A stretch of 47,603 nt of DNA, from IMG/VR virus record IMGVR_UViG_3300049228_000125, positions 1 through 47,603 of that record, one strand, 5' to 3'. The notes below the pieces were generated by a model. The model was not told the DNA's origin and made no database searches. It worked only from the letters and a program-made list of their open reading frames with translations. This document shows positions 20,387 through 38,592 of the stretch, piece by piece; within the stretch, counting starts at the first letter, position 1, and each line of letters opens with the position of its first letter. The translations under genes and the position numbers were made by a program. The stretch is from a virus. Lineage: Duplodnaviria > Caudoviricetes.

Positions 20387-20581
20387 ATGAATCACCCCCA
20401 CACCTGCGAGTGCATAGACTGCTGGAACAATAACGAGCTGGCCCTCTGCGCCATCGAACAACTTAAGGATCTCCCATGCTCCTCCGCCCCCTCAACCTCC
20501 GCGTCATCGACTTCGAGACCTCCAATCTCCCCGCAAAAGGAGGGAAGATCATCGAAATCGGCTGGCTCGATCTCGAAGTAA
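20387..20581 (+). CDS. Small Cys-rich hypothetical protein
   Basis: AAGGA RBS; H..CECIDC; long overlap into the next gene. Confidence 0.4.
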   Translation: MNHPHTCECIDCWNNNELALCAIEQLKDLPCSSAPSTSASSTSRPPISPQKEGRSSKSAGSISK

Positions 20582-21264
20582 CAAGAGAAACCACAGGGGA
20601 AATTTCCCTTTCTGACAGCAGTAACCTCTCCAGCGCTCGCTACGGCCTTCCCCAAGGTGAGGAAATCGACCTCTTCGCCCAAGCCGTCAACCACATAAGG
20701 AAGGAGGACCTCCCATCCTGGTACGTGCTTGACAGTCTTTCCCTTTCCTCTTACCTCCAATGCGAGGCCGGAACCACCCGCCAATTCGACTACCTCATCG
20801 CCCACAACGCATCCTTCGAAGAGGCCATGTTCAAGAACTACGGAATAGAGCAAGGAGGTGAAATCTTCCCCCTTCCTCCCCTCATCTGCACCATGAAAGT
20901 CGCAAAGCGTGTCTTCCCCTCACAGAAGAGCTTCGCCCTCCAATACCTCCGCTATGCCCTCGACCTTGAAGGGGGGAAGAGAGATCTTCGCTGCGATCCT
21001 CCTCATTCCGCCGGCGCAGACGTGTGGCTGACATTCCTCCTTTTTAAAAAGATGCTAGAAGAATTCCACGTCACCATCGACGAAATGGTCGGCTTTTCCT
21101 CTCGCCCAACCCTCCACCTCACCTGCCCAATCGGAAAGTACAAAGGCGCCGCCTGGAACGAGGTTGAAACCGGCTACCTCAAATGGATTCTCAAATCCCC
21201 CACCATCGATGCCGACGTAAAAGCCGCCGCAAAAGATGAACTTATCTTCCGAGGCCAAGCGTAA
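20476..21264 (+). CDS. DEDDh 3'-5' exonuclease (ExoX/DnaQ-like) with C-terminal DUF3820-like domain
   Basis: IDFET, AHNASFE, HSAGADV motifs; C-terminal PIGKYKG...YLKWIL. Confidence 0.88.
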   Translation: MLLRPLNLRVIDFETSNLPAKGGKIIEIGWLDLEVTRETTGEISLSDSSNLSSARYGLPQGEEIDLFAQAVNHIRKEDLPSWYVLDSLSLSSYLQCEAGTTRQFDYLIAHNASFEEAMFKNYGIEQGGEIFPLPPLICTMKVAKRVFPSQKSFALQYLRYALDLEGGKRDLRCDPPHSAGADVWLTFLLFKKMLEEFHVTIDEMVGFSSRPTLHLTCPIGKYKGAAWNEVETGYLKWILKSPTIDADVKAAAKDELIFRGQA

Positions 21265-26135: not shown

Positions 26136-27458
26136 ATGTTCAACTCGATCGCCATCCCCCTCATCCTTATCAACGAGCGCACCCGTGAACTCGACCCCGC
26201 CCATCGTGACGAACTCGCTTCCGACATCCTTCGAAACGGTCTCCTCCAGCCCATCATCCTCGGCGACTCACCAGACTCACCCCCGCTCGTCGACGGACTT
26301 CACCGCCTTCGGGCGATTGAGGCGCTTCACGCTTCCGGGGAAATCATCTTCTACGACGGTGAACCCCTCTTCGTCGGGCAGGTTCCCTTCATCCGTTTCG
26401 GTGACCTATCCCCCGCTCGTCTTCTCGAAGCTGAGATCGCGGCTAACCTCTTCCGCCGCGACCTAACCTGGCAGGAGCGCACCGATGCCCTCGCCCGCCT
26501 TCACCGCGCCCAACTGGAGCTTGACCCCAATGCCACAGTTTCCTCGACCGCAGCAAAGCTTGCCGGAGCCACAGGGAAGAGTGAGTCTACCCTCCAAAAA
26601 GCCATCGCCCGAGCAACCGTCATCGCCGACGCTATTGAGGCGGACCCTTCACTGGCTTCTGCCCGCTCTGAAACCGAGGCCATGTCCCGCGTCAAATCCG
26701 ACATCACCCGCCTTGCTTCTGGGCTTCTCGAAGGAGGGTTTTCCACTACTAACTCACTCCACACCCTCATCGCCGGAGATGCTACTGCGATACTCCCGAA
26801 CCTCGGGGCTGAGACCGTAGACCTCATCCTCTCCGACCCACCCTATGGCGTCGGCGCGGACACCTGGACGAGCAAATTCCAGGACGCCCCTCACCACTAC
26901 AAGGACGACTGGAAGTCGGCGGAAAAGCTCTACGGAACAATCCTCCTCGAAGGCTCCCGCCTTGGAAAGGAGCGCTCCAACATCTTCCTCTTCTGCGCCG
27001 TCGAGCGATGGCATCTTATCCGTGACATGGCAGACGGCCTCGGTTGGAGTGTTTGGCCTCGCCCGATCATCTGGCATAAGAGCAATGAGGGAATCCGCCC
27101 TTGGGGGCAGAAAGGCTACGCATATTGTTATGAAGCAATCCTCTTCGCCTGCAAAGGCCAACGGGGACTGTACCGGACTGGCTCTGACGTTATCTCGGGC
27201 ATCTATAAAGTCCGGGATCGAGAGCACGGAGCAACTAAACCGGCGAGTCTGTTCGGGCAGCTTATCACTTCTGCCTGCCTCCCCGGCGACACCGTCCTCG
27301 ACCCGTGCTGCGGTTCAGGGACAATCTTCGAAGCTGCAACGCTCACTTCAACAATTGCTACGGGAATTGAAAAAGATGAGCACTATATTGGACTCTCTCG
27401 ACAAAGACTAGAGCTTACGAAAGAAGATCTCACCGTGGAAGAACTGGACACATTCTGA
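26136..27458 (+). CDS. ParB-N domain fused to an N4-C/N6-A DNA methyltransferase (beta class)
   Basis: ParB motifs GLLQPI and LVDGLHRLRA; MTase motif IV DPPY precedes H.ATKP and motif I VLDPCCGSGT. Confidence 0.88.
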   Translation: MFNSIAIPLILINERTRELDPAHRDELASDILRNGLLQPIILGDSPDSPPLVDGLHRLRAIEALHASGEIIFYDGEPLFVGQVPFIRFGDLSPARLLEAEIAANLFRRDLTWQERTDALARLHRAQLELDPNATVSSTAAKLAGATGKSESTLQKAIARATVIADAIEADPSLASARSETEAMSRVKSDITRLASGLLEGGFSTTNSLHTLIAGDATAILPNLGAETVDLILSDPPYGVGADTWTSKFQDAPHHYKDDWKSAEKLYGTILLEGSRLGKERSNIFLFCAVERWHLIRDMADGLGWSVWPRPIIWHKSNEGIRPWGQKGYAYCYEAILFACKGQRGLYRTGSDVISGIYKVRDREHGATKPASLFGQLITSACLPGDTVLDPCCGSGTIFEAATLTSTIATGIEKDEHYIGLSRQRLELTKEDLTVEELDTF

Positions 27459-27781
27459 TGGCTACTCGGAAGCAGACTAAAGCAAAGCTCAATCTCCTAG
27501 GCATTGGAGTTGGCATCCCGACTCGAGCCTACGCGATCATGCTGGCGTGGAACTGGCTCGCCCCCATGTACACGACGGTTCAACTTACCTTCGCTCAGGG
27601 GATTTTTATTGTCCTCCTCGCCAGCTTTCTATCCGTGAAGATCTCCGACTTTCATGACGGCGGAGAGCACCTAGTCGACATTGACGACCATGCCGTCTTC
27701 GTAATGAGATGGTGCCTTGTATCACCCCTCGTCCTCATTGGCCTTGCTTACCTCCTAAAGTGCATCATGATAGGGATCTAA
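27458..27781 (+). CDS. Membrane protein (about 3 TM segments)
   Basis: 107 aa with three hydrophobic stretches. Confidence 0.7.
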   Translation: MATRKQTKAKLNLLGIGVGIPTRAYAIMLAWNWLAPMYTTVQLTFAQGIFIVLLASFLSVKISDFHDGGEHLVDIDDHAVFVMRWCLVSPLVLIGLAYLLKCIMIGI

Positions 27782-27782
27782 C

Positions 27783-29567
27783 ATGAACCTATTCGCTGGA
27801 ACTCGCGGGCCCGAAAGGGCTCGCATCCTCATCATCGGCGAGGCATACGGCGCGACAGAAGAGCGCTTCGAAAAGCCCTTCATGGGTGAGAGCGGAAACG
27901 AACTTTCGAATATGCTTAAAGAGGCAGGCGTAGGCCCGGACGAATGCCTCTACACAAACCTCATCAATCGCCGACCCGAGGATAATAACTTCAAGCACTT
28001 TCTCCTCCGCACGCAAGAGGCCAAGGATGAAAAGCTCAAACCGTTTCGGGGAGTATTCCCGAAAGAAGAATTACTCACCGCCTACAACCGACTCCATGAG
28101 CTTATCCTGCACGTTAAGCCCGCAATCATTATCGCCCTCGGAAACTGGGCTCTCTGGGCTGTCACCGACCACATCCGAATCCGTGCCGGAACAAAGAAGG
28201 AGCGCAACAACGGCTACAAACTCGCCACCGGCATCGACACCTATAGGGGAAGTATGGAGCGCGCTTCTTCAAGCCTGGGCAGCATCCCCGTCCTCGCCAC
28301 TTACCACCCCGCTGCCGTCCTACGTATGTGGCCGTGGCGCTTTACTGCGGTCTCTGACCTACGAAGAGTTCGAGAGTACATATCCCAACCTATCCCTCTC
28401 CGGAAGTGGGGTCGTAGCCCAAGCATTAAACGGTGGATTGTCCCGGACGTCTCGACCGTCGAAACCTGGATCGAGGGTTTCTTCCAAGGGAAGGAGAAGG
28501 AAACCACCCTCGAACTCACGCTCGATCTGGAGACCTACGCCGGCAAGATCCACCTTATGGGACTATCTACCCCTAACTCAACCCGGCTCATCGTCCCCTT
28601 CATGGACGTTAGAAAGGGAAGCACCAAGCCCTTCTACTCTCCTTATGACTGGCGACGTGTTTACTCCTCCATCCGTTCCCTCCTTACCCACCACAAGGTA
28701 CGTCTCCTGGGACAGAACCTTCTGTATGACGCTCAATACCTCCACAATGAGTTTGCATATGTGCCACGTATCGGATTTGATACGATGGTCGCCCAGCATC
28801 TCCTCTGGCCAGCCCTTCGTAAAGGCTTGGACTACATGGCTTCGATATACTGCGACTCCTATACCTACTGGAAAGAGGACCGCAAGACATCTCTCGAGAA
28901 TGAAGACCTCGACCTCGCCTCAAACTATAACGCTGACGATCTGGACTACACAGAAGATGTTGCGGAGGAGCTGAAGAAGCAGCTTAAAGCTGAGGGAATG
29001 GAACAGCTTTTTTCCGACCGTATGGAGCTAGTCGAGATCCTCCTCGACATGATGATCCACGGGGTCCGCGTTGACGGGAAGAAGAAGCGCGTTCAATCCC
29101 TCGCCATGATGATGACCATGGGGGAATTAATCTCCTGGCTCGAGGGCGCGATCCCCGACTACCTCAAACCTGTAGGAAAGAAGGGCTCGAAGCCGTGGTA
29201 TTCTTCCGACACAAAACTAAGGACGCTTTTCTATGAGAATCTTGAACTCGATCCGATCTACGATAAAGAAACTGGCGAGCCTTCGCTTAATAAGCATGCC
29301 CTCGAACGCCTTGGGTTCAAGTACCCTGAGTTCAAGCCGCTTTTTGGAGCTCTTACCCTCTTCCGAAGTGCAAGAACTTTCCGAGGTACTTTTCTGGACG
29401 CCGTTCTCGATCCGGACGGACACTGGCGCTGTGCTTACACTATCACAACTGAGACCGGACGGCTCGCATCAGCAGAGAACGTTTACGATCGTGGCGGGAA
29501 CCTCGCGAACATACCCCGCGATCGTGAACCGCTAAACTTTTACAACGCAATCGAGGCCTTATCATGA
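27783..29567 (+). CDS. DNA polymerase A, N-terminal fragment: UDG-like domain + 3'-5' exonuclease + thumb
   Basis: UDG motifs GEAYG..E...PF.G.SG and TYHPAAVLR; Exo I DLET, Exo II QNLLYD, Exo III YNADD; PolA TETGRLAS...NLANIP then a stop. Confidence 0.9.
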   Translation: MNLFAGTRGPERARILIIGEAYGATEERFEKPFMGESGNELSNMLKEAGVGPDECLYTNLINRRPEDNNFKHFLLRTQEAKDEKLKPFRGVFPKEELLTAYNRLHELILHVKPAIIIALGNWALWAVTDHIRIRAGTKKERNNGYKLATGIDTYRGSMERASSSLGSIPVLATYHPAAVLRMWPWRFTAVSDLRRVREYISQPIPLRKWGRSPSIKRWIVPDVSTVETWIEGFFQGKEKETTLELTLDLETYAGKIHLMGLSTPNSTRLIVPFMDVRKGSTKPFYSPYDWRRVYSSIRSLLTHHKVRLLGQNLLYDAQYLHNEFAYVPRIGFDTMVAQHLLWPALRKGLDYMASIYCDSYTYWKEDRKTSLENEDLDLASNYNADDLDYTEDVAEELKKQLKAEGMEQLFSDRMELVEILLDMMIHGVRVDGKKKRVQSLAMMMTMGELISWLEGAIPDYLKPVGKKGSKPWYSSDTKLRTLFYENLELDPIYDKETGEPSLNKHALERLGFKYPEFKPLFGALTLFRSARTFRGTFLDAVLDPDGHWRCAYTITTETGRLASAENVYDRGGNLANIPRDREPLNFYNAIEALS

Positions 29568-30175
29568 CCGTACCTTCATCCCTCTGGATCCAAACCCTTC
29601 ACGGAGGTGTATATGACTACGACTCCGAAAAGAACTCTACTCCTATCACCCCTCACACGATTGCTCATTCTCTTGCTCGCACTTATCGCTTTCGTGGACA
29701 TTCTCGTTACCGCTGGACGGTTGCCGAGCATTCCTTGCTCGTCCGCGATATCGGGATGCAGCTATTATCCTCAGATAACGAGCGGCTTCTCGCAGCTCCC
29801 TATCTCCTCCTCCATGATGCTCACGAGGCCTTCCTCGGTGACATGCCGGCGCCGCTGAAGAAATTTTTAAAGACGAAGTTGAACTTTAATATGGAGATGC
29901 TCGAGGCCGACAGCGATAAAAGAATTAGGAAGGATTTAAAGCTCGACTTCCCTCCTCATTGGGTTCTTCCCCTTATCAAAGAAGCCGACGTCTACGCCTT
30001 AAAGCTTGAGCGCGAAGCATTCATGGCCTCGAAGCATGAATGGGTCATCGACGAAATAAAAATCCCCTCGATCGTCACCGCCTCCCCTTCCCGAGAACTC
30101 GGCATCCCCACCCTCACCCGTGTATTCCGGACCGCTATCGAGGACGCCATCCATGCTACACAATCCGCTCCATAA
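29564..30175 (+). CDS. HD-domain phosphohydrolase (5'-deoxynucleotidase YfbR/YfdR-like)
   Basis: RFRGH, VAEHS, LLHDAHEAFLGD..APLK, IKEAD motifs. Confidence 0.88.
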   Translation: MTVPSSLWIQTLHGGVYDYDSEKNSTPITPHTIAHSLARTYRFRGHSRYRWTVAEHSLLVRDIGMQLLSSDNERLLAAPYLLLHDAHEAFLGDMPAPLKKFLKTKLNFNMEMLEADSDKRIRKDLKLDFPPHWVLPLIKEADVYALKLEREAFMASKHEWVIDEIKIPSIVTASPSRELGIPTLTRVFRTAIEDAIHATQSAP

Positions 30176-30941
30176 GGTCACAGCGCAGTCATTCGATTTC
30201 CCTCCAATCCGGGACATCTTCATCCCCGATCCAGGGTTCACGATAATCGACATCGATCTTGAGGGAGCGGATGCTCGTGTCGTTGCATGGAGGGTAAACT
30301 CCGTCCGCCTGAAGAAAGCCTTCCGTGAGGGGCTCAAGGTCCACGCGGTCAACGCAAAGCTAATGTTTCCCGTCTCCGAATGCGGGGAGGACGGGATGAA
30401 GGAGCCCACCTATACGAAGACAAAGAAATGCACCCACGGCACAAACTACGGCGTCACCGCCCCAACCATGTCCTCCCACACAGGCTTCCCCGTTCATGAG
30501 TGTAAATCCTTCATCATTCGATGGCTCCGTGCCAACCCCGAAATCCCCGAGTGGCACAAGGAAGTCGAGTTCCTTATCCAACGCGACAGGGGTATCTCCA
30601 ATCCCTTCGGCTATAAGATCCGTTGGTTCGACCGACCTCACGCTCTACGCAATAAAGGCCTTGCTTGGGAACCGCAAAGCGTCGTCGCGGAGGTCACGTA
30701 TAGAGTCCTACGTCGCCTTAGAAAAGAGGAGCCCCGAATACAGCCCCTCATGCAAGTCCACGACTCCCTCGTCCTCCAATGCCGGACGATCAATCTACAA
30801 TCCTGCTTACGCTCCCTTTATCGAATATGCAATGACGTAATCGTTCCCTATCCCGATCCCCTCATAATCCCCTGGGGGCTGAAGCTCTCAACCACCTCCT
30901 GGGGGGAGGCGACTAAGGCGAAATGGGGAGATTACATCTAG
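30153..30941 (+). CDS. DNA polymerase A, C-terminal fragment (palm/fingers, motifs A, B, C)
   Basis: GAGGA RBS, ATG 30153; IRDIFIPD, motif A DLEGADAR, motif B K..THGTNYG, PQS..A, motif C QVHDSL. Confidence 0.88.
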   Translation: MLHNPLHKVTAQSFDFPPIRDIFIPDPGFTIIDIDLEGADARVVAWRVNSVRLKKAFREGLKVHAVNAKLMFPVSECGEDGMKEPTYTKTKKCTHGTNYGVTAPTMSSHTGFPVHECKSFIIRWLRANPEIPEWHKEVEFLIQRDRGISNPFGYKIRWFDRPHALRNKGLAWEPQSVVAEVTYRVLRRLRKEEPRIQPLMQVHDSLVLQCRTINLQSCLRSLYRICNDVIVPYPDPLIIPWGLKLSTTSWGEATKAKWGDYI

Positions 30942-30950
30942 GGGAACCTC

Positions 30951-32168
30951 GTGGCAAGACACTTCGACAGCTGGTTTAACGGGTACAGGGAGTATACCTT
31001 CAACACAGAAGCCCCCGGAGCTTTCCATTGGTGGACGGCCGTCTCCACCATAGCCGGCGCGCTACAGAGGAAGGTCTACATCGACCAAATCGCTTTCGAC
31101 TGGGTACCTAACTTCTATATCTGCCTCGTCGGCCAAGCCGGGTTAGTCACAAAATCCACCTCCCTCCGAATGGGAGAACAGCTACTTAAAAAGCTCGGAA
31201 AGAAGATCCGCTTCGGAAGTCAGTCAGGCTCCTGGCAGGCTATGGCTAAGGAGATTCAAGACTCAAAGTACCAAATCCAGGGAGGAATAATGTCATGTCC
31301 GATATCTTACTTCGTCTCCGAGTTTGGAACCTTCTTCGATCCGCAAAATCGCGAGCAGGTCGATTTCTTCGTCGACTCCTGGGACGCACAGAAGACCGGG
31401 TTCACGAGATCGACGATATCCGGCGGTCAAGTCGAAATCCAATGCCCCTGTGTCAACATCCTTGCGGCGACCACCCCGACATGGATCAAGGAGAATTTCA
31501 CGGCAACTATGGTGGGTGGCGGCTTTGCTTCACGCCTCATTTTTGTGCGCGGTCACGCAAAGAGGAAACTCATCGCCTACCCCGGACTCGAGAAAACAGC
31601 AGATGACCACCTTCCTCTTCAGGCCAAGCTTGTCTCCGACCTCAAGCAGATAAGCGAACTTGAGGGGCCGATGCAGTTAACCGAGGAAGCGATCACATGG
31701 GGAAAAGACTGGTACGAGAGCCACTATACTAAGAAGCGTCAACTCTCCGGCGAGCGGTTCGACGGATACTACGCGAGGAAGCAAACCCACATGCATAAGC
31801 TCGCAATTATCCTCTCGGCTGCGGAGGGAAATTCCATGAAGATTGAGGTGAGGCATCTAAGCCAGGCGAACGCTCAACTTCTTCTCGTGGAGAAAGATCT
31901 CGCGAGCGTAATCGACAATGTAACCTCGAAACAGATCTCGACCACTCATAAGCGGGAGATCCTATCGATCATACGTGGGGAGGGAGAGATAGATAGGGAG
32001 GAGCTTTACGCTCAACTCTTCCAGATGATGTCAGGGCCGGACTTCGATAAAGGCCTCTCGGATTTAATCAAAGCCCGGCAGATTACGATATCCCCGCGGG
32101 GAGGGAAAACCTTGCTCACTATCAAGGATACCTCCCCCGTGGTCGTGCCGATTAAGAAGAAGGGGTGA
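30951..32168 (+). CDS. DUF3987-like P-loop NTPase (putative replicative helicase)
   Basis: EAP..FH.W, PNFYICLVG..G..TKST Walker A variant, SEFG, GGFASR; C-terminal winged-helix-like region. Confidence 0.7.
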   Translation: MARHFDSWFNGYREYTFNTEAPGAFHWWTAVSTIAGALQRKVYIDQIAFDWVPNFYICLVGQAGLVTKSTSLRMGEQLLKKLGKKIRFGSQSGSWQAMAKEIQDSKYQIQGGIMSCPISYFVSEFGTFFDPQNREQVDFFVDSWDAQKTGFTRSTISGGQVEIQCPCVNILAATTPTWIKENFTATMVGGGFASRLIFVRGHAKRKLIAYPGLEKTADDHLPLQAKLVSDLKQISELEGPMQLTEEAITWGKDWYESHYTKKRQLSGERFDGYYARKQTHMHKLAIILSAAEGNSMKIEVRHLSQANAQLLLVEKDLASVIDNVTSKQISTTHKREILSIIRGEGEIDREELYAQLFQMMSGPDFDKGLSDLIKARQITISPRGGKTLLTIKDTSPVVVPIKKKG

Positions 32169-32174
32169 GGAGAA

Positions 32175-32213
32175 AACAGTGTGCTTTCGCCGGTTTGGAA
32201 AAAGCACACTCTC
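32175..32213. terminator. Palindromic element copy C at the convergence of the two arms (possible bidirectional terminator or operator)
   Basis: Perfect 10-bp inverted repeat AGTGTGCTTT-N13-AAAGCACACT between converging stop codons. Confidence 0.6.
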
Positions 32214-32214
32214 T

Positions 32215-35200
32215 TTACCTCCCCGGCACTTTTTCCCTACGGGTCACAGCTTCAGGATACAACCTATCAACCTGACCTGTGATCCCCCTCACCGCCTTAT
32301 TCACCGGGACGCCTGCTTCCTTAAATTTCAGGTTGCGTCCCTGCGCCTGCATGGATTTCTTGAGCGTATCGTTCGTGATCCGCAGCGCCTTGTCCGGGGC
32401 CTCCTCATTGAACCCCCTGATCGCCTTAACGGCGTCCTCAATCCCCTCCTTATCTTTCAACCTCTTCGCCCGGAACAACTCCTGCGTGAGGATTTGCCGC
32501 TGCCCCAGCCAGTACCTCTGCACCTCCATCTGAGCGCGGGTATAGTCCCATTGCCGAGAGAGCTTAGCCGGTTGAAAACCCGCAGCGACGGAGGCTATGT
32601 CCATCTGATCGCTCATATCATTCGGATCGAACGAAACGACTGTCGCCCCCGACCTATCCCTCTCCCTCTGCTCGGCCATAAGCCGGGACGATTTCATCAT
32701 CGCTCGAAGTGCTCGCGGAAACGTCCTCTCCCACCGCTTCACGTCATCAGCAGGGAGGGAATGATCCATCACCGACTGATAGATATTGAACGGGACACCG
32801 AGCCACGGACCGGCGACTTCACTCGTCACCTGCCCGACGGTTTCCCTCCACGAGGAGCTATCCGGATTAATCATCCCTTTAAGTCCCGGAATGAGCTTAC
32901 CCATAGACAGGCTCCCCGACAGGTCCGGCGTAGCAGAGGGGATACCGAGCCCGTTCAACGCCGCAGGGATGCCGAACCCGATACGTGAGGCCCCATGCAG
33001 GACGATATCCCCCGTGTTTCCCTCCGTCCAATCCGCCATCATCGTCCGGATCATCTTCTCAAAATCGAAGTTCATCCCGAACTGACGTAGCAGCCACTTC
33101 ATCAGCTCATTTGCATCGTCCGCACCGGGGAGCCCCATAAGCCCGGCCGTCGCCGCGAGCCCGAGCAACATCCTCACCTGCACCCCTCTATCCTGCTTGA
33201 AGAGGAAGAAGAGCATATTTTGCAGGTAAGACTTAAACATGAGGAGCACCCCCTTCGGCCCGGACATCAGCTTCGGTCTGGCCCAACGGGAGTATTCAAA
33301 TTGAGTCGTTCTGACCGCGTCAGCTGCGACCATATACGCCCGGAGATGCGGCTCATCCCACCCCCGGTCCACGCGCAGTTGATCAGCCTCTTGCTGATTC
33401 CCCGCCATGACCTCATTAACATGAGCGCTGTTATTATCTCGGAGCGCCATCGCATAAGCTGCTCGGAACGTAACCGCCCGGTTGAACTTCTCGGCCAGAG
33501 AGAACGGCGCCGTCCCCCATTGTCCGAGTCGGCGAAGACCCTGCCCGAACTTACTCGTCGAAAGAGTTCTCTGAAGCACACTTCCCTGCGAGATAGCTGC
33601 GAGTTCTTGGGCGAAACCGTCATCGAGGAGTCGGCTTTCATGCGCCTCTTCTATTGCTTCCGAAAGTATGCCCTCATCTTTCGGCTGAATTCCTCGGAGT
33701 TCATTGAAGTAGTCCTTCGAAACCTGCGTGAACGCGGAAGTCACCTTCCCCATTGTGGCTAAATCGCCGAACTTCGTCGCGAGGTATGGCATTGCCACCA
33801 TCGGAACCTGCGTGAGGTTCACGAACGCCGTTGCAGGGACGAACGCAAAATACCACAGATATCCTATCGCCCTCATTTCCGCCCAATCGGTCGAGGGCTT
33901 CATCAACTCCTCATAATGCCGCGTCATGTAATCCGCGATACGAGTTCTAGCATCTTGAGAAATTGGGCTTCCACTTTGCCGGACATCTCGGATAGCACCT
34001 TCGAGCCGCTTGGTATATTCTTGCCTCGCAACAAACCTTGCCGCTCTTGCGAAGTAGGTCCCATAAGCTCTAAGACCATCCGCAGAATACCCCGGCGTGT
34101 TCGCGCGCTCGAGCAACTGACGACGAAAGGAAGTAGTTGGAGCCGCTTGGAGGGCCAATGCCTCCAGGAGTTTTTTATCCTTCTTTTGCTGGGTAGTAAG
34201 GTCGGGTTTATCAAGCCCGAGCGCGCTTTCAATATTTCTGAGCGCAAATGCCGGAAGCCCCTGCCATTGCTGCAAGGTCGGGGAGAGTTCGTCCTCAACG
34301 ATAGAGTTCTCCCCCGGGACTTTATATGCCTTCTCAATCGCGACGACAGCACCATCCCGCTCCTTCTTTGAAGAGAAGGCTTCGAAATGGAGGACCTCCC
34401 CCTTGCTATTCCTCACCGTTACGACATACTTCCCGAACCTCATATGCGGGAAATACGGCCGGGCTTTCATTTGCGACACTTCCCCCGCAATGCTCTTCAC
34501 CTCCTTCGCAAGTTCGAGGGGATCCTGGATAGTCTCTATCGCCTTCTGGGTGGAGACCTCCTCGAGGTAGGACAGGAACTGTAGGAAATCCTGACGAATG
34601 TTAACATATGCGTCGAACGCGGCCTTTTGCAGCCCGTGCTTTTTGACGAGGGCAAGTAGCTCCTGCTCCGTCGGCCAACGGGTTTCATGATTTTCCCTCT
34701 GTTCCTTCGTGAGGTACGTCATTTGATCAAGCTCGAACAGCAGCTTGAACAGCGCGTCCGACTGCGCCTTACCGAGCGCATGCACTTCCCTTACGCGCGA
34801 GTCGGCCAGCGACGCCCAGCTAAGCGCCGTGTTTTCCATGGCCCGGTTCAGGGACTTATACGCCTGTAGGCCGGCTATATGCGGGTTCAGGTCGGCCATC
34901 TGATGGATACCTAAGATCCATTCCATAATGGTGTTATGCCGATCGGCGACGGCCAGAAGCCCCTTAATCTTTGCCCTATCGGCATGGGCGTCCTTCGGGA
35001 AGATTTTGAGCAACTGCTTCACCCGGAAAGTCGACGCCCTTTCCGGAAACATCGTCACGCTTTCGTCGAGGCCTAAGGCTTTCGCGTTCTTCACATTCCT
35101 CGCAATAGAGTCATTCAACGCCCTCCGAGTAGGCTCCGATAGGAACGGCTCCTCCTGCGTGACCTTCCCCCTCTGCATGAGCTTATCGAGCCACTCCTTC

Positions 35201-38200
35201 ACGATAAACTCTGGCCGGCCGAGATTAAGATCGTTCCGATAAGGCGCTTCCTTGTTCTTTATCCTCGTAATGATCCCATCGATGAGGTCTTTAATCTTCC
35301 CCGCAGTCGTGCGGAAGAACTTCTCGACAGGTCCGACAGGAGTATGAGGCTGCACCATCCAGCGGGTGATATTCGAAACGAGCCACTCCTCGAAGTTATA
35401 CGCAGCCCGATGTCTCCCGCGTTGCTCCCCGATCGTCCTTTCGAGAACGGGATGGGCGACAACCCTCGCGAGCTGGGTAGCTTTGTTCTGCCCTTGAGAA
35501 GCATGACGTTCTCTTCGATACGCCACCTTAAACAGCTCCTGCTGTGGCGTACCCATCCTCTCCCATTCATACGAGGCTATGATCTTCGACGCCTCATGCG
35601 CAACATCCGTGACGAACGCAGCAGCATCGGGCTCCTCCACAAACATTTTCGTAGTCGGGACGCCTAGTGACTGTGCCGCCTTCCCCGCAGGAGAAAGATT
35701 TAACGCCTTTACCTTCGGCGGAGGTACGGCATCTCCCTTCTCCGCCTTTGTATATGCGAGGGTATCTTGCCCCACAAGATTATCTGTCCGAGCGAGATTA
35801 CCATTCCCCACCTCGTCATCCATTTTCATCGTGAGCGCGTCAAATGTTCCGGCTTCCTGGAACTCCCATACGCCTCCCTTGCCCTGCTTCTCCAGAAGAT
35901 GGGTCACACCCGGATAAGCCGTATCGAAATCCGCCCTCGACATCGTCTTCAACGAGGACTCTTTCAGCCCCGACAGCTTAATGACCGGTTGAATTCTATA
36001 CGCATCCCCTCTTTTCTGCCCGGGCTCCCGCTTCGCGACGAAAAGCTGTTTCTCCCCCTCCGGACGTTTAACAAGGGGCTTCTGGCCAACTGTCTGCCTC
36101 CCATAAAACCAGGGATCGACCTGAATAACCGATCGAGCTTGAGGCTGGCCATTCTTCGTAAGAACGACGGACTTCTCCTCGTATAAAGTCCCTCGCCCGT
36201 TTAAGCTCCCCGGCGCGACGATTTCAATCGCGACATCCGTCCGGATTGCCATGGACTTAAAGATGTCTCGGATCATATCTCCGATAGGAGAAATACCGGG
36301 TATGTTCGTACCACCAGCTCCCATGCCTACCAGGCCCGAGAGGATTCGACGAAGAGAGGTATTATGAAACTGCGACATAAACGCCGCTTGCACGGCGGGA
36401 GTCTGGAAGATTATCCTCTTCGCAACCCTTGGCTCACCCGTCCGCTTCGACCGGGACCGGATGATTTTCTGTAGGTCTTTGTCCTTCCCGGCAGAGGGCT
36501 CCGTTATCTCAACCCCCTCCGCAAACCCGTTCGGGGCTAGCCTGCGTAGGAGAGCAAAATTAGGAGTATCAGCTGTGACATCGAGACGGAGACCTCTATC
36601 CACCAGAGACATGAACCGCTCGACCGAAGCCTTTGGAAACTTCTGGAAGCCCTTTGAAACACGACCTGTCCCCTGAAGAAATTGCACAAACTCTTTAAGT
36701 AGGTTCTTCTGGGTCGGAACATCCGTGACCCCTTCAAACCTAATTCCCTTCGCCTTTGCGCGACCAACATCAAGCTTTCGCGAAATCTGTTGATCCGCCT
36801 GCACCTGACGGGAAAGGTCCTGCGTTGGAAACGCCGTAACGTCCCCCGGACGTACCCTCTCGAGGTCGACCGTCTTTCCACGTCCCTCGTCCTCGCCAGA
36901 AAGACGGGAGAGTACGTAGAAGCTCTTCCCATTATCCCTCGTCCGCGTTTCCTTCAGCTCCGCCTTGCTCCGCATGGAGGACAAGTCCGTCGGCCCCTGC
37001 GCCTGCATAAGTTGCGTGTGCTTGTTCGGATCGCGAAGGACGATTTGAGAATCCGGGAAGGGCTCCACCCTGGCGCCGTTATCCATGGCCTGACGGTAGA
37101 ACACCGCCGCTTTCGCCAGCGCATTCTCCCTCGCCTGCGGAGTTGTCCCTGTTTTTGCTTTATCCCTCCACTTGATCGCCTCGACGAGGTTATCCGCCGC
37201 CTCTTTCAGGGTGTTCTGATTGAGGAAGTCAACGCGCGAGTCCGCAATGCTCGACGGAAGATCCTCGACAGAAACAGAAATATCTCCCCGATTGACCTTG
37301 TCCGGGTCAAGACGGAGATATGACGTTACTTTTGCGTTGGCTCCGTCATTAAGAGCTTGATCTTGCGACCCAAACGTAAGCTCCGTCCCTGGAATAGCCG
37401 CAGCAAAGAGGCCTCGCCGGCGAATATCAACAGTGCTTTGTAGGGCGTCAAGCTCAGCGATATTGGCCACCCCGACAGTGGCATCAAGTCCGGGGAGAGA
37501 GGCGTCAATCGCAGCCTCAGGGCCGGTAGTTGGGAGTTCATCAGGGCCTTGACCCGTGAGGTAAGGAACATCTCCCGCAGCCTTACGCACGTCGGAGTCT
37601 TTAAGCGCCTCATCTGGATGTGACCCGTGATAGAGGGAGAAAAACCCGCCGCCGATACCACCTGCTACGAGGGAGTTCAGCCGGCGGGAGTTAGCTTCGG
37701 GAGAGAGGTAGCCGTAATTCTCGTCAATGTAGCTCCGGGTGATAATGTCAGCTTCTTCCTGAAGAGCTTCGGTCCCCCCCTCCGTCGCAGCACCAACTCC
37801 CAGCTTTCCGAGCCGTCCGCTTCCCTGGTATATACGATCAAGGAGATGAGTTGCTTGGTTGCCGGTAAGTCCAAGGGATTTTCCTAACATAAGAGGGAAG
37901 ACACTTTCGAGCGCACCCTTAGCTGAGCCAGCGAGGAGGGAGGCCCCCGTGTAGATATCCTTCTGGGAGTCCCATAGCTCCTGCCCCGTCGCCGCGCTTT
38001 CTATCCCAGCCGCAGTCGCAACCGCTCCGGCCGTCGAGGCGGGGATAGAATTGAGGATCGCAGAACGCGTAGCGGTCTGGACCCCTTTTTTCGCAAGCAT
38101 CCCCGCTAGCATATCCGCCGCCCCAGCTCCCGACATGATCGCCGCAACGAAGGGAAGAGTCTCCCCAATCGTCCCGGCAACGTACCTACTCCACGTAGAG

Positions 38201-38592
38201 GGGTCCATGAGCTTAAGTTGCTCGATAGACGCTATACCTCTCTGCGCCCCGCCGGAGGCTATATCGGAGGAGGTCTGCATAAGGGCCTCATCCAGCCCGT
38301 GCGTATCCGCCCCGGTCCAGTCCTCGACCTTCCTTACCCCCATAGCAGCTAGGGCAGGAGCGGTCGAAACCACCTGCCTCACGCCCTGTTGAAGCCCAGC
38401 TCCAAGCTCCCCGAGCGTCGTTTCCGCCTTTGCATTTCCAAACAACGTTGAACTCTCCGAGAGCTTCTGCCCCACGCTTTTCGGCGCGGACTCTCCCGGA
38501 GCTTCTGACCTGAATTCGGCCCACGGATCATGCTCGGCTGGAGCCTGTGCATTCACCGCCCTAAATTCAGCCCATGGATCATTTTCAGCCAT
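32215..38592 (-). CDS. Large internal virion / DNA-ejection polyvalent protein with PLxRFG-type domain
   Basis: 2125 aa, last late gene; Ala/Gly-rich N-terminal region; YFPHMRFGKY motif; degenerate zincin-like HEASK. Confidence 0.75.
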   Translation of the reverse strand: MAENDPWAEFRAVNAQAPAEHDPWAEFRSEAPGESAPKSVGQKLSESSTLFGNAKAETTLGELGAGLQQGVRQVVSTAPALAAMGVRKVEDWTGADTHGLDEALMQTSSDIASGGAQRGIASIEQLKLMDPSTWSRYVAGTIGETLPFVAAIMSGAGAADMLAGMLAKKGVQTATRSAILNSIPASTAGAVATAAGIESAATGQELWDSQKDIYTGASLLAGSAKGALESVFPLMLGKSLGLTGNQATHLLDRIYQGSGRLGKLGVGAATEGGTEALQEEADIITRSYIDENYGYLSPEANSRRLNSLVAGGIGGGFFSLYHGSHPDEALKDSDVRKAAGDVPYLTGQGPDELPTTGPEAAIDASLPGLDATVGVANIAELDALQSTVDIRRRGLFAAAIPGTELTFGSQDQALNDGANAKVTSYLRLDPDKVNRGDISVSVEDLPSSIADSRVDFLNQNTLKEAADNLVEAIKWRDKAKTGTTPQARENALAKAAVFYRQAMDNGARVEPFPDSQIVLRDPNKHTQLMQAQGPTDLSSMRSKAELKETRTRDNGKSFYVLSRLSGEDEGRGKTVDLERVRPGDVTAFPTQDLSRQVQADQQISRKLDVGRAKAKGIRFEGVTDVPTQKNLLKEFVQFLQGTGRVSKGFQKFPKASVERFMSLVDRGLRLDVTADTPNFALLRRLAPNGFAEGVEITEPSAGKDKDLQKIIRSRSKRTGEPRVAKRIIFQTPAVQAAFMSQFHNTSLRRILSGLVGMGAGGTNIPGISPIGDMIRDIFKSMAIRTDVAIEIVAPGSLNGRGTLYEEKSVVLTKNGQPQARSVIQVDPWFYGRQTVGQKPLVKRPEGEKQLFVAKREPGQKRGDAYRIQPVIKLSGLKESSLKTMSRADFDTAYPGVTHLLEKQGKGGVWEFQEAGTFDALTMKMDDEVGNGNLARTDNLVGQDTLAYTKAEKGDAVPPPKVKALNLSPAGKAAQSLGVPTTKMFVEEPDAAAFVTDVAHEASKIIASYEWERMGTPQQELFKVAYRRERHASQGQNKATQLARVVAHPVLERTIGEQRGRHRAAYNFEEWLVSNITRWMVQPHTPVGPVEKFFRTTAGKIKDLIDGIITRIKNKEAPYRNDLNLGRPEFIVKEWLDKLMQRGKVTQEEPFLSEPTRRALNDSIARNVKNAKALGLDESVTMFPERASTFRVKQLLKIFPKDAHADRAKIKGLLAVADRHNTIMEWILGIHQMADLNPHIAGLQAYKSLNRAMENTALSWASLADSRVREVHALGKAQSDALFKLLFELDQMTYLTKEQRENHETRWPTEQELLALVKKHGLQKAAFDAYVNIRQDFLQFLSYLEEVSTQKAIETIQDPLELAKEVKSIAGEVSQMKARPYFPHMRFGKYVVTVRNSKGEVLHFEAFSSKKERDGAVVAIEKAYKVPGENSIVEDELSPTLQQWQGLPAFALRNIESALGLDKPDLTTQQKKDKKLLEALALQAAPTTSFRRQLLERANTPGYSADGLRAYGTYFARAARFVARQEYTKRLEGAIRDVRQSGSPISQDARTRIADYMTRHYEELMKPSTDWAEMRAIGYLWYFAFVPATAFVNLTQVPMVAMPYLATKFGDLATMGKVTSAFTQVSKDYFNELRGIQPKDEGILSEAIEEAHESRLLDDGFAQELAAISQGSVLQRTLSTSKFGQGLRRLGQWGTAPFSLAEKFNRAVTFRAAYAMALRDNNSAHVNEVMAGNQQEADQLRVDRGWDEPHLRAYMVAADAVRTTQFEYSRWARPKLMSGPKGVLLMFKSYLQNMLFFLFKQDRGVQVRMLLGLAATAGLMGLPGADDANELMKWLLRQFGMNFDFEKMIRTMMADWTEGNTGDIVLHGASRIGFGIPAALNGLGIPSATPDLSGSLSMGKLIPGLKGMINPDSSSWRETVGQVTSEVAGPWLGVPFNIYQSVMDHSLPADDVKRWERTFPRALRAMMKSSRLMAEQRERDRSGATVVSFDPNDMSDQMDIASVAAGFQPAKLSRQWDYTRAQMEVQRYWLGQRQILTQELFRAKRLKDKEGIEDAVKAIRGFNEEAPDKALRITNDTLKKSMQAQGRNLKFKEAGVPVNKAVRGITGQVDRLYPEAVTRREKVPGR

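Follow-up and report, generated by a model that had tools for sequence, protein, structure and literature searches.

Can a DNA polymerase whose gene is cut inside its catalytic domain still be made as a complete enzyme, and by what route? This question is raised by IMG/VR record IMGVR_UViG_3300049228_000125 (Duplodnaviria; Caudoviricetes), a stretch of 47,603 nucleotides (nt), hereafter the window, which represents an entire phage genome (circular, single contig, terminal overlap of 127 nt). In the window, a family A DNA polymerase (PolA) with an uracil-DNA glycosylase (UDG) and an exonuclease domain is encoded by two genes, here called N and C, with an intact gene for an HD-domain hydrolase (HD) between them. 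Comparisons with relatives and structure predictions make it very probable that N and C specify a non-covalent, two-subunit (heterodimeric) PolA from two separately started proteins, with the HD gene as cargo.

The cut lies within the polymerase domain, in a variable loop between the NLxNIP block and motif A, and all features of this layout described in an initial annotation of the sequence were found where it had placed them. The N protein matches PHROG 17 (DNA polymerase) over amino acids (aa) 8–582, with a Pfam PF01612 (DNA_pol_A_exo1) match at aa 292–402, and the C protein matches DNA_pol_A (PF00476) from model position 140 (E 9e-17). The motifs of family A DNA polymerases are divided between them, with T558-G-R560 on N and D35, K91, Y99 and H203-D204 on C; D204 is nearly invariant across the relatives' alignments, and the exonuclease acids D248, E250, D316 and D386 of N are invariant. 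From NIP to IRDIF the distance is 690 nt, of which the HD open reading frame (ORF) takes up 612. The C ORF most plausibly starts, as judged from its sequence, at the ATG at 30153, 18 residues ahead of IRDIF and with a 23-nt overlap with the HD gene, the alternative being an in-frame GTG at 30120. When a fused relative was aligned with Taq polymerase, the cut mapped to the short loop that connects NLQNIP to the IRRAF helix.

The source of the window is a metagenomic assembly, and the layout might accordingly reflect a misassembly, or a polymerase gene that an insertion has disrupted and that is now decaying. In the possible source run (X1), four contigs tile the region with 0 differences, each junction being bridged by one contig, and two of these contigs overlap by just 10 nt, within HD. 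In a run from a separate study (X2, less than 90% identical), N, HD and C lie together on one 12-kb contig, and the three-gene layout is repeated in three more assemblies (L005, L006 and L091/L092). Ratios of nonsynonymous to synonymous substitution rates (dN/dS) between the window and three relatives were 0.09–0.11 for N and 0.13–0.29 for HD, and 0.04–0.05 for C with the two relatives for which the ratio was computable, the third pair being partial and saturated. These independent assemblies, dN/dS values far below 1 and a cultured lytic isolate record with the same cut refute misassembly or decay, to which we assign next to no probability. All three genes are maintained, as the initial annotation had held.

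That annotation had treated the locus as a one-off, and here it needed revision, for the cut in the window is widespread and recurrent among relatives. Searching with the C half gave 667 candidates, including 437 proteins of 141–450 aa, and nearly all of the 120 homologues listed start only a few residues ahead of the LPNxRxxFxPD block; a search for longer proteins returned 532, mostly single-chain UDG-exonuclease-polymerases of 750–890 aa. With a C-half profile, and hence with a bias to split forms, we fetched 169 loci (the 80 best from viral contigs, the 80 best from metagenome contigs and 9 from genomes), which together with earlier loci were classified as 99 split, 58 fused and 22 without an N half in the stretch. 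Merging identical C cores left 150 distinct loci, namely 82 split, 48 fused and 20 lacking an N half; a few near-copies remained, and four of the fused rows are distant outgroups. The same cut was present in 82 of the 130 distinct loci with both halves. The homologues, whose comparison had been proposed as a check, are therefore both contiguous and split, and the split point recurs. The cultured Vibrio phage VS-ABTNL-3 is cut at this position too, its gap being occupied by an unrelated gene of 184 aa; the polymerases of Microcystis phage Mel-JY34 and of MW202489 are fused.

Across the 82 split loci, gaps measure 17–2917 nt, the frame offsets are distributed 33/28/21, and 14 gaps are of 130 nt or less, most of them as a direct stop–start overlap. 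From the gaps we picked 112 ORFs and scanned 86, among which were 10 dUTPases, 7 YfbR-like HD proteins, 6 ribonucleotide reductases, 3 HNH proteins, 3 DUF3310, 3 TSCPD, 2 ThyX and 2 cold-shock proteins, about half having no match. A homing endonuclease as the cause of the cut was rejected, HNH domains occurring in just these 3 of the 86 scanned ORFs. The ribonucleotide reductase genes (572–586 aa) lie between the polymerase halves in one clade (L031, L043, L044, L052, L149 and L177), and TSCPD genes occupy the gap in some neighbours of that clade. Near-identical sisters were also observed in which the gap is empty, with an ATGA overlap, or holds a nuclease-like ORF (L028 versus L035 and L070); the gap measures 29 nt in L028 and 453 nt in L035, where the ORF is HNH-like by eye and has no Pfam match. 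The L028/L035 pair is a natural before/after case for cargo traffic, which fits movement through an existing gap and gives no direction.

We next consider whether the halves could be rejoined after transcription. Other phage PolA genes can contain group I introns, and an intron was suggested for phage MEP401 (PMC10580990); in the window, moreover, N and C share a reading frame, and the HNH nucleases in the gaps also suit the proposal that the insert is a self-splicing group I or II intron with HD as its ORF, splicing of which would restore a single-chain PolA. Against this, Rfam gave no match in the window, in four relatives or in 10 further split loci, nor at E values up to 10 over positions 29200–30500. 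The 60-nt ends of 62 long gaps share 25% pairwise identity, the level of chance, versus 52% for the coding flank, and no 12-mer is common to more than 4 of them. A ribozyme would not fit into fourteen of the gaps, a comparison of four close relatives puts the greatest variability, indels included, at the junctions, and the C half has its own start signals. With Rfam blank, no ribozyme core and unconserved gap ends, we rejected the intron as very unlikely.

Joining at the protein level through trans-splicing by a split intein is known in other fractured phage genes (PMC2677866), and a cis intein does exist elsewhere in this lineage, in the exonuclease region of the N half of one split polymerase (L014:4578-6986, weak LAGLIDADG match). 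The scan that detected this intein found no Hint or intein profile on either window half at E values up to 1, and the tails of 3–6 residues in most loci and leaders of mostly fewer than 12 residues are too short to represent Hint-domain halves; this explanation was rejected as vanishingly improbable. The blank Rfam and intein-profile scans thus bear out the initial annotation, which had seen neither intron nor intein. A single N–C or N–HD–C chain could also result from ribosomal frameshifting or bypassing, in keeping with the ATGA-like overlaps at many junctions, the N stop overlapping a start codon in 51 of the 82 split loci (39 by −4, 12 by −1). The frame offset, however, varies even in the closest kin (window 0, L005 2, L006 0, L091 1), as does the gap length; in L005, L006 and L091, a stop codon and a spacer separate N from HD, and gaps reach 2.9 kb, leaving only a faint likelihood for such a fused product.

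Signals for separate starts, by comparison, follow the split state. Among rows with a parsable motif A, a Shine–Dalgarno (SD)-like site with an in-frame ATG or GTG within 25 codons of the C core was present in 52 of 78 split and 1 of 42 fused loci. In the window, HD starts in an ATGA overlap with N and is preceded by an SD-like GAGG at 29553–29556, within the N tail. The linker of fused relatives is polar and 5–27 residues long (about 51 of 70 parsed by pattern), and in 64 of the 82 split loci the N tail after NIP has 3–6 residues, typically KGDEE, the same letters that open this linker. The Gly that follows NIP is encoded by GGA in 39 of the 69 split loci and in 4 of the 35 fused ones, against backgrounds of 24% and 22%, an enrichment that comes down to 4 independent supported pairs (sign test p 0.25). 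One lead from these sequences is that the linker Lys-Gly-Asp/Glu codons may double as an SD site for the next gene; in the GGA pattern, selection after the cut would be indistinguishable from predisposition. A promoter and terminator scan of 27400–32300 returned chance numbers (1 vs 3.0 and 5 vs 4.5).

Structure predictions were consistent with pairing of the halves. AlphaFold2 modelled the fused relative P0122 from a 77-row alignment with a mean predicted local distance difference test score (pLDDT) of 95 and a predicted template modelling score (pTM) of 0.92. In this model of a relative, the fold is Klenow-like and matches Pol I structures (8oo6, E 3e-31, TMt 0.79), and the linker is a coil with the two lowest 10-residue blocks (pLDDT 71 and 76). 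The complex prediction that had been proposed as a check was carried out with ESMFold2, which docked the window N and C proteins with a score of 0.86, compared to 0.00 for the best of three controls; runs agreed in at least 82% of contacts, partner pLDDT was at least 87, and in calibration 116 of 157 solved pairs and 2 of 215 mismatched pairs passed the threshold. The surest contacts run from core to core, between N 409–435 and C 22–24, 154–156, 183–187 and 198–199. The initial annotation had also proposed the terminal tails as new docking devices, which these data weaken, since most tails are short linker starts and the C leader (MLHNPLHKVT) is variable in close kin and absent from the model's confident contacts. 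What stands of this proposal concerns the HD-bearing clade, where the N tail is 15–18 residues long and conserved, and where residues 581, 583–585 and 589 contact the C half in the model; in this clade, the long N tail may add to the N/C interface.

Phylogenies of the halves indicated that the split and fused states have interchanged. After removal of 20 loci that were too short from the 130 that have both halves, the resulting 110-row tree contained 12 state changes, at least 4 of them forced by strongly supported branches, and a 46-row tree contained 10, at least 7 of them forced. Placing the split rows in one clade was rejected by the approximately unbiased (AU) test, with p-AU values of 9e-31 for the joined halves, 2e-5 for N only and 8e-6 for C only. 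Some of the split clades are sizeable and branch deeply (30 rows), and the split state is accordingly stable on these trees.

What part, then, does the HD gene play? The HD protein has a YfbR-like match (PF12917, E 2e-6, 28 bits vs a cut-off of 25.9) and a stronger one to phrog_318 (E 5e-33), its metal-ligand residues H56, H84-D85 and D142 are invariant in 7 rows, and its nearest solved relative is the uncharacterised Atu1052 (2gz4). It is likely a stand-alone deoxynucleotide phosphatase, predicted to trim nucleotide pools; a DatZ role in a Z genome was dropped on finding no PurZ-like gene among the 31 window ORFs scanned. HD occurs in 8 of the 82 split gaps, nowhere else in the fetched flanks and in none of the 48 fused loci, and the 6 HD loci placed on the tree form one starred clade. 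Because HD is found in only 8 of 82 gaps and 14 gaps do not exceed 130 nt, it is, on this comparison, not required for the split state. HD was also rejected as the cause of the cut, its clade grouping with other split rows, although at a support of 85–88 only. The HD gene is likely a passenger in the gap, and likely entered an older, existing one.

These comparisons lend no support to the three-protein complex with the nucleotidase that the initial annotation had envisaged. In one form of this idea, HD would be a third subunit that binds the polymerase, perhaps through the 16-residue N tail specific to this clade, and that screens or delivers nucleotides at the active site, which is compatible with two polymerase genes but needs an extra part. 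All 8 HD loci share a long, similar N tail unlike the short tails of most split loci, HD is kept among relatives as distant as about 40–50% identity, and the coupling overlaps would match the amounts of the proteins. Yet HD is missing from 74 of the 82 gaps and, in the fetched flanks, from all fused loci, related HD genes turned up in 106 phage records in a search made without reference to such a polymerase, tail and HD mark one clade and hence a single event, and the tail residues contact the C half in the model; we consider a third subunit unlikely. Doubtful as well is a wider proposal, in which the palm loop of this His-B3 lineage would act as a reversible fission/fusion hinge, switched many times over, that makes an operon slot, synthesis of C would be chained behind a nucleotide-pool enzyme (HD here; dUTPase, ribonucleotide reductase or ThyX elsewhere), and the HD-clade N tail would recruit HD as a third, fork-side subunit editing deoxynucleoside triphosphates (dNTPs).

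We therefore return to the two-subunit PolA assembled in trans, as first put forward in the initial annotation and now supported by recurrence, selection, start signals, the lack of a splicing signal and predicted docking. In PolA enzymes, where residue roles follow those of the E. coli enzyme, the TGR strands and thumb and both catalytic aspartates are all needed. N would supply the UDG, exonuclease, thumb and TGR palm strands, and C both catalytic aspartates and the fingers; with these elements on different chains, neither half is expected to polymerise alone. The two chains would be made from one message by coupled translation and then fold together, pairing via the native palm/thumb-base/exonuclease interface of single-chain PolA. 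The linker of 5–27 residues would be dispensable, and a stop plus a new start within it would therefore be tolerated. The gap would then collect small replication-module genes, often of nucleotide metabolism and likely co-translated via stop–start overlaps, and the split likely arose, or was reversed, several times in the lineage.

Several points weigh against this reading or narrow it. As an SD match, GAGG is short, and by the rule used no SD site exists in L006 or L091/L092. A complex model can pass by its likeness to solved single-chain PolA, in which case it would indicate a kept interface, not binding. Given the manner of sampling, the split fraction cannot be taken as an estimate for the population; the AU test used 46 rows chosen after the first tree, under a model without site mixture; and, the trees being unrooted, repeated fission and re-fusion cannot be told apart from these sequences. 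Finally, after its entry HD has been kept in 8 of 8 clade members, which may reflect more than chance position.

Table 1 Features of the split polymerase locus in the window, with the basis of each assignment.
Feature	Position (nt)	Strand	Basis
Polymerase N subunit gene, 594 aa: family-4-like UDG, 3'-5' exonuclease, thumb, first palm strands	27783..29567	+	sequence, Pfam, PHROG, alignments
UDG domain, aa 9-187	27807..28343	+	Pfam PF03167, E 3e-19
3'-5' exonuclease core, D248/E250 via N312/D316 to Y382/D386	28524..28988	+	Pfam, invariant columns
TGR (aa 558-560) to NLANIP (aa 573-578), last conserved palm block of N	29454..29516	+	sequence, alignments
N C-terminal tail, 16 residues after NLANIP, linker-loop remnant	29517..29564	+	conserved within HD clade
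HD-domain hydrolase gene, 203 aa, YfbR/phrog_318 type	29564..30175	+	Pfam, PHROG, alignment
SD-like GAGG 9 nt ahead of C ATG, inside HD gene	30140..30143	+	sequence, split-versus-fused test
Polymerase C subunit gene, 262 aa, with pre-motif-A helix, motifs A and C, and fingers carrying motif B	30153..30941	+	sequence, homologue search, alignment, Pfam
Motif A, catalytic Asp D35	30255..30257	+	invariant in 67-row alignment
Motif B, K91-xxx-H95-xxx-Y99, His at variable B3 position	30423..30449	+	alignment
Motif C His-Asp, H203, D204	30759..30764	+	alignment

With its N-terminal family-4-like UDG fused to the exonuclease, recognised by Pfam, the window enzyme belongs with the UDG-PolAs. The UDG motifs GEAYG and HPA are present, uracil excision being no more than a putative activity here, and the UDG of the fused relative P0122 matches the solved UDGs 1ui0 and 1l9g. 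The first motif varies, being GEAYG in the window (27783-27900), GEAWG or GESWG in many split relatives and GEAPG in the fused consensus. On the C side, position B3 is His in the window; pattern scoring of 115 relatives gave His in 110 (70 of the 74 split and 40 of the 41 fused forms). In the window lineage, the first Arg of motif B is often replaced by Tyr, and in motif A an Asp, not the usual Glu, stands five residues past the catalytic Asp. Together, these changes possibly amount to a compensated nucleotide pocket; one paper search on His762 returned nothing relevant.

The window genome also encodes an SU10-type capsid, a portal and a terminase, along with a replication module of a Sak4-like ATPase, a ParB-methyltransferase, the polymerase and a DUF3987 primase/helicase-like gene; no second DNA polymerase was found among the 31 window ORFs scanned with Pfam. 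In the ParB-methyltransferase (26136-27458), which precedes the polymerase in several relatives, a ParB-like domain is fused to an N6/N4 DNA methyltransferase. A 107-aa hydrophobic ORF (27458-27781) lies directly before the N gene; a relative of 92–95% identity has two extra ORFs resembling HNH/AP2 homing endonucleases by eye (L005:2142-2606, L008:1385-1888), one of which takes this place. Elsewhere in the window are a stand-alone DEDD-type exonuclease (20476-21264, phrog_192), additional to the proofreading domain of the polymerase, and, in the virion module, a 2,125-aa protein without a Pfam match (32215-38592, − strand), likely an ejection protein. Among the relatives, Caulobacter phage Kuura (L004, OQ067476) has a UDG-PolA cut elsewhere, into a 369-aa UDG-bearing and a 560-aa polymerase gene with two small ORFs between. 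Three whole phage-sized contigs of the family (45–47 kb; L170, L172, L173) are binned in GTDB metagenome-assembled genomes of unrelated phyla, making their host labels unreliable.

How does this arrangement compare to known systems? The statements that follow reflect the accessible parts of the papers cited by PMC number. A close parallel in a working enzyme is N4 RNA polymerase II, a right-hand fold cut at the equivalent place and purified as a heterodimer, with the thumb and DX2GR in gp15 and motifs A–C in gp16, single-chain homologues being the majority (PMC4496689). It differs in being a T7-type RNA polymerase without exonuclease or UDG, and its split is called rare (24 of more than 500 homologues) and is not a recurrent cut with a cargo slot (PMC4496689). 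The OM43 phages MEP401 and MEP402 have a two-gene PolA with a small ORF between the halves, a split that is kept in most group I relatives and was left by its authors as a possible intron (PMC10580990). Their cut falls in the same interval, between the NLQN block and motif A, but about 12–15 residues later, after the IKTLF block and directly before motif A, in another PolA lineage without UDG; MEP401 was absent from the tblastn hits of either window half.

In the T7-like cyanophages S-SBP1 and S-TIP37, PolA fission came about by a new stop and a new start, and according to predictions the halves reassemble into the structure of the single chain, their termini being free (PMC10201439, PMC12695635). 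There, however, the cut separates the exonuclease and polymerase domains and leaves the whole active site in the pol gene, whereas in the window the palm is divided after NLANIP; that fission also has a single origin, compared to several changes in the window lineage. Only exonuclease/polymerase fission is described by Czernecki 2023, as the first in PolAs (PMC10201439). The Aeromonas phage PolB gp43A/gp43B and the mobE-split NrdA of Aeh1 are likewise essential enzymes in two chains without splicing, in which the gap may hold a homing endonuclease or other DNA and the pieces co-purify and are active (PMC2988022, PMC3045599); they belong to other protein families, and the NrdA tails are essential and insertion-derived, in contrast to the linker remnants seen here. 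Single-chain UDG-PolAs (N4-like cluster 17; SPO1, SP-10, SP-15, YerA41, phiLo) share the family-4-like UDG ahead of exonuclease and polymerase (PMC10201439, PMC13697223), but are single chains; the polymerase of the window lineage is of about 780–850 aa. The B3 residue in described UDG-PolA clusters is Phe, Tyr or Leu (PMC10201439), Phe in cluster 17 of Czernecki 2023, and His in the window lineage.

In the literature searched, which included few subscription papers and the main texts without supplements (among them those of PMC10201439 and PMC10580990), we found no account of this cut in a UDG-PolA, nor of His at B3, and the accessible parts of PMC11348598, PMC8351571 and PMC11288001 held nothing relevant. 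The split UDG-PolA palm is thus not in print in this form; it is a variant of known genes-in-pieces, with a nearby cut published for MEP401.

Within that literature, a two-chain PolA palm had earlier only been glimpsed, in MEP401, where the authors took it for a possible intron. As a gene, HD is ordinary and interchangeable with other gap genes. For PolA marker surveys and annotators, the consequence is that the halves will be counted as fragments or pseudogenes, and for engineering, the cut marks a tolerated site for split, conditionally active DNA polymerases. A cultured member (VS-ABTNL-3) and near-identical pairs with and without cargo make both the assembly of the enzyme and the origin of its genes-in-pieces testable. 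In this large, mostly uncultured phage lineage, the split state of the replicative polymerase gene is common, long-kept and repeatedly changing.

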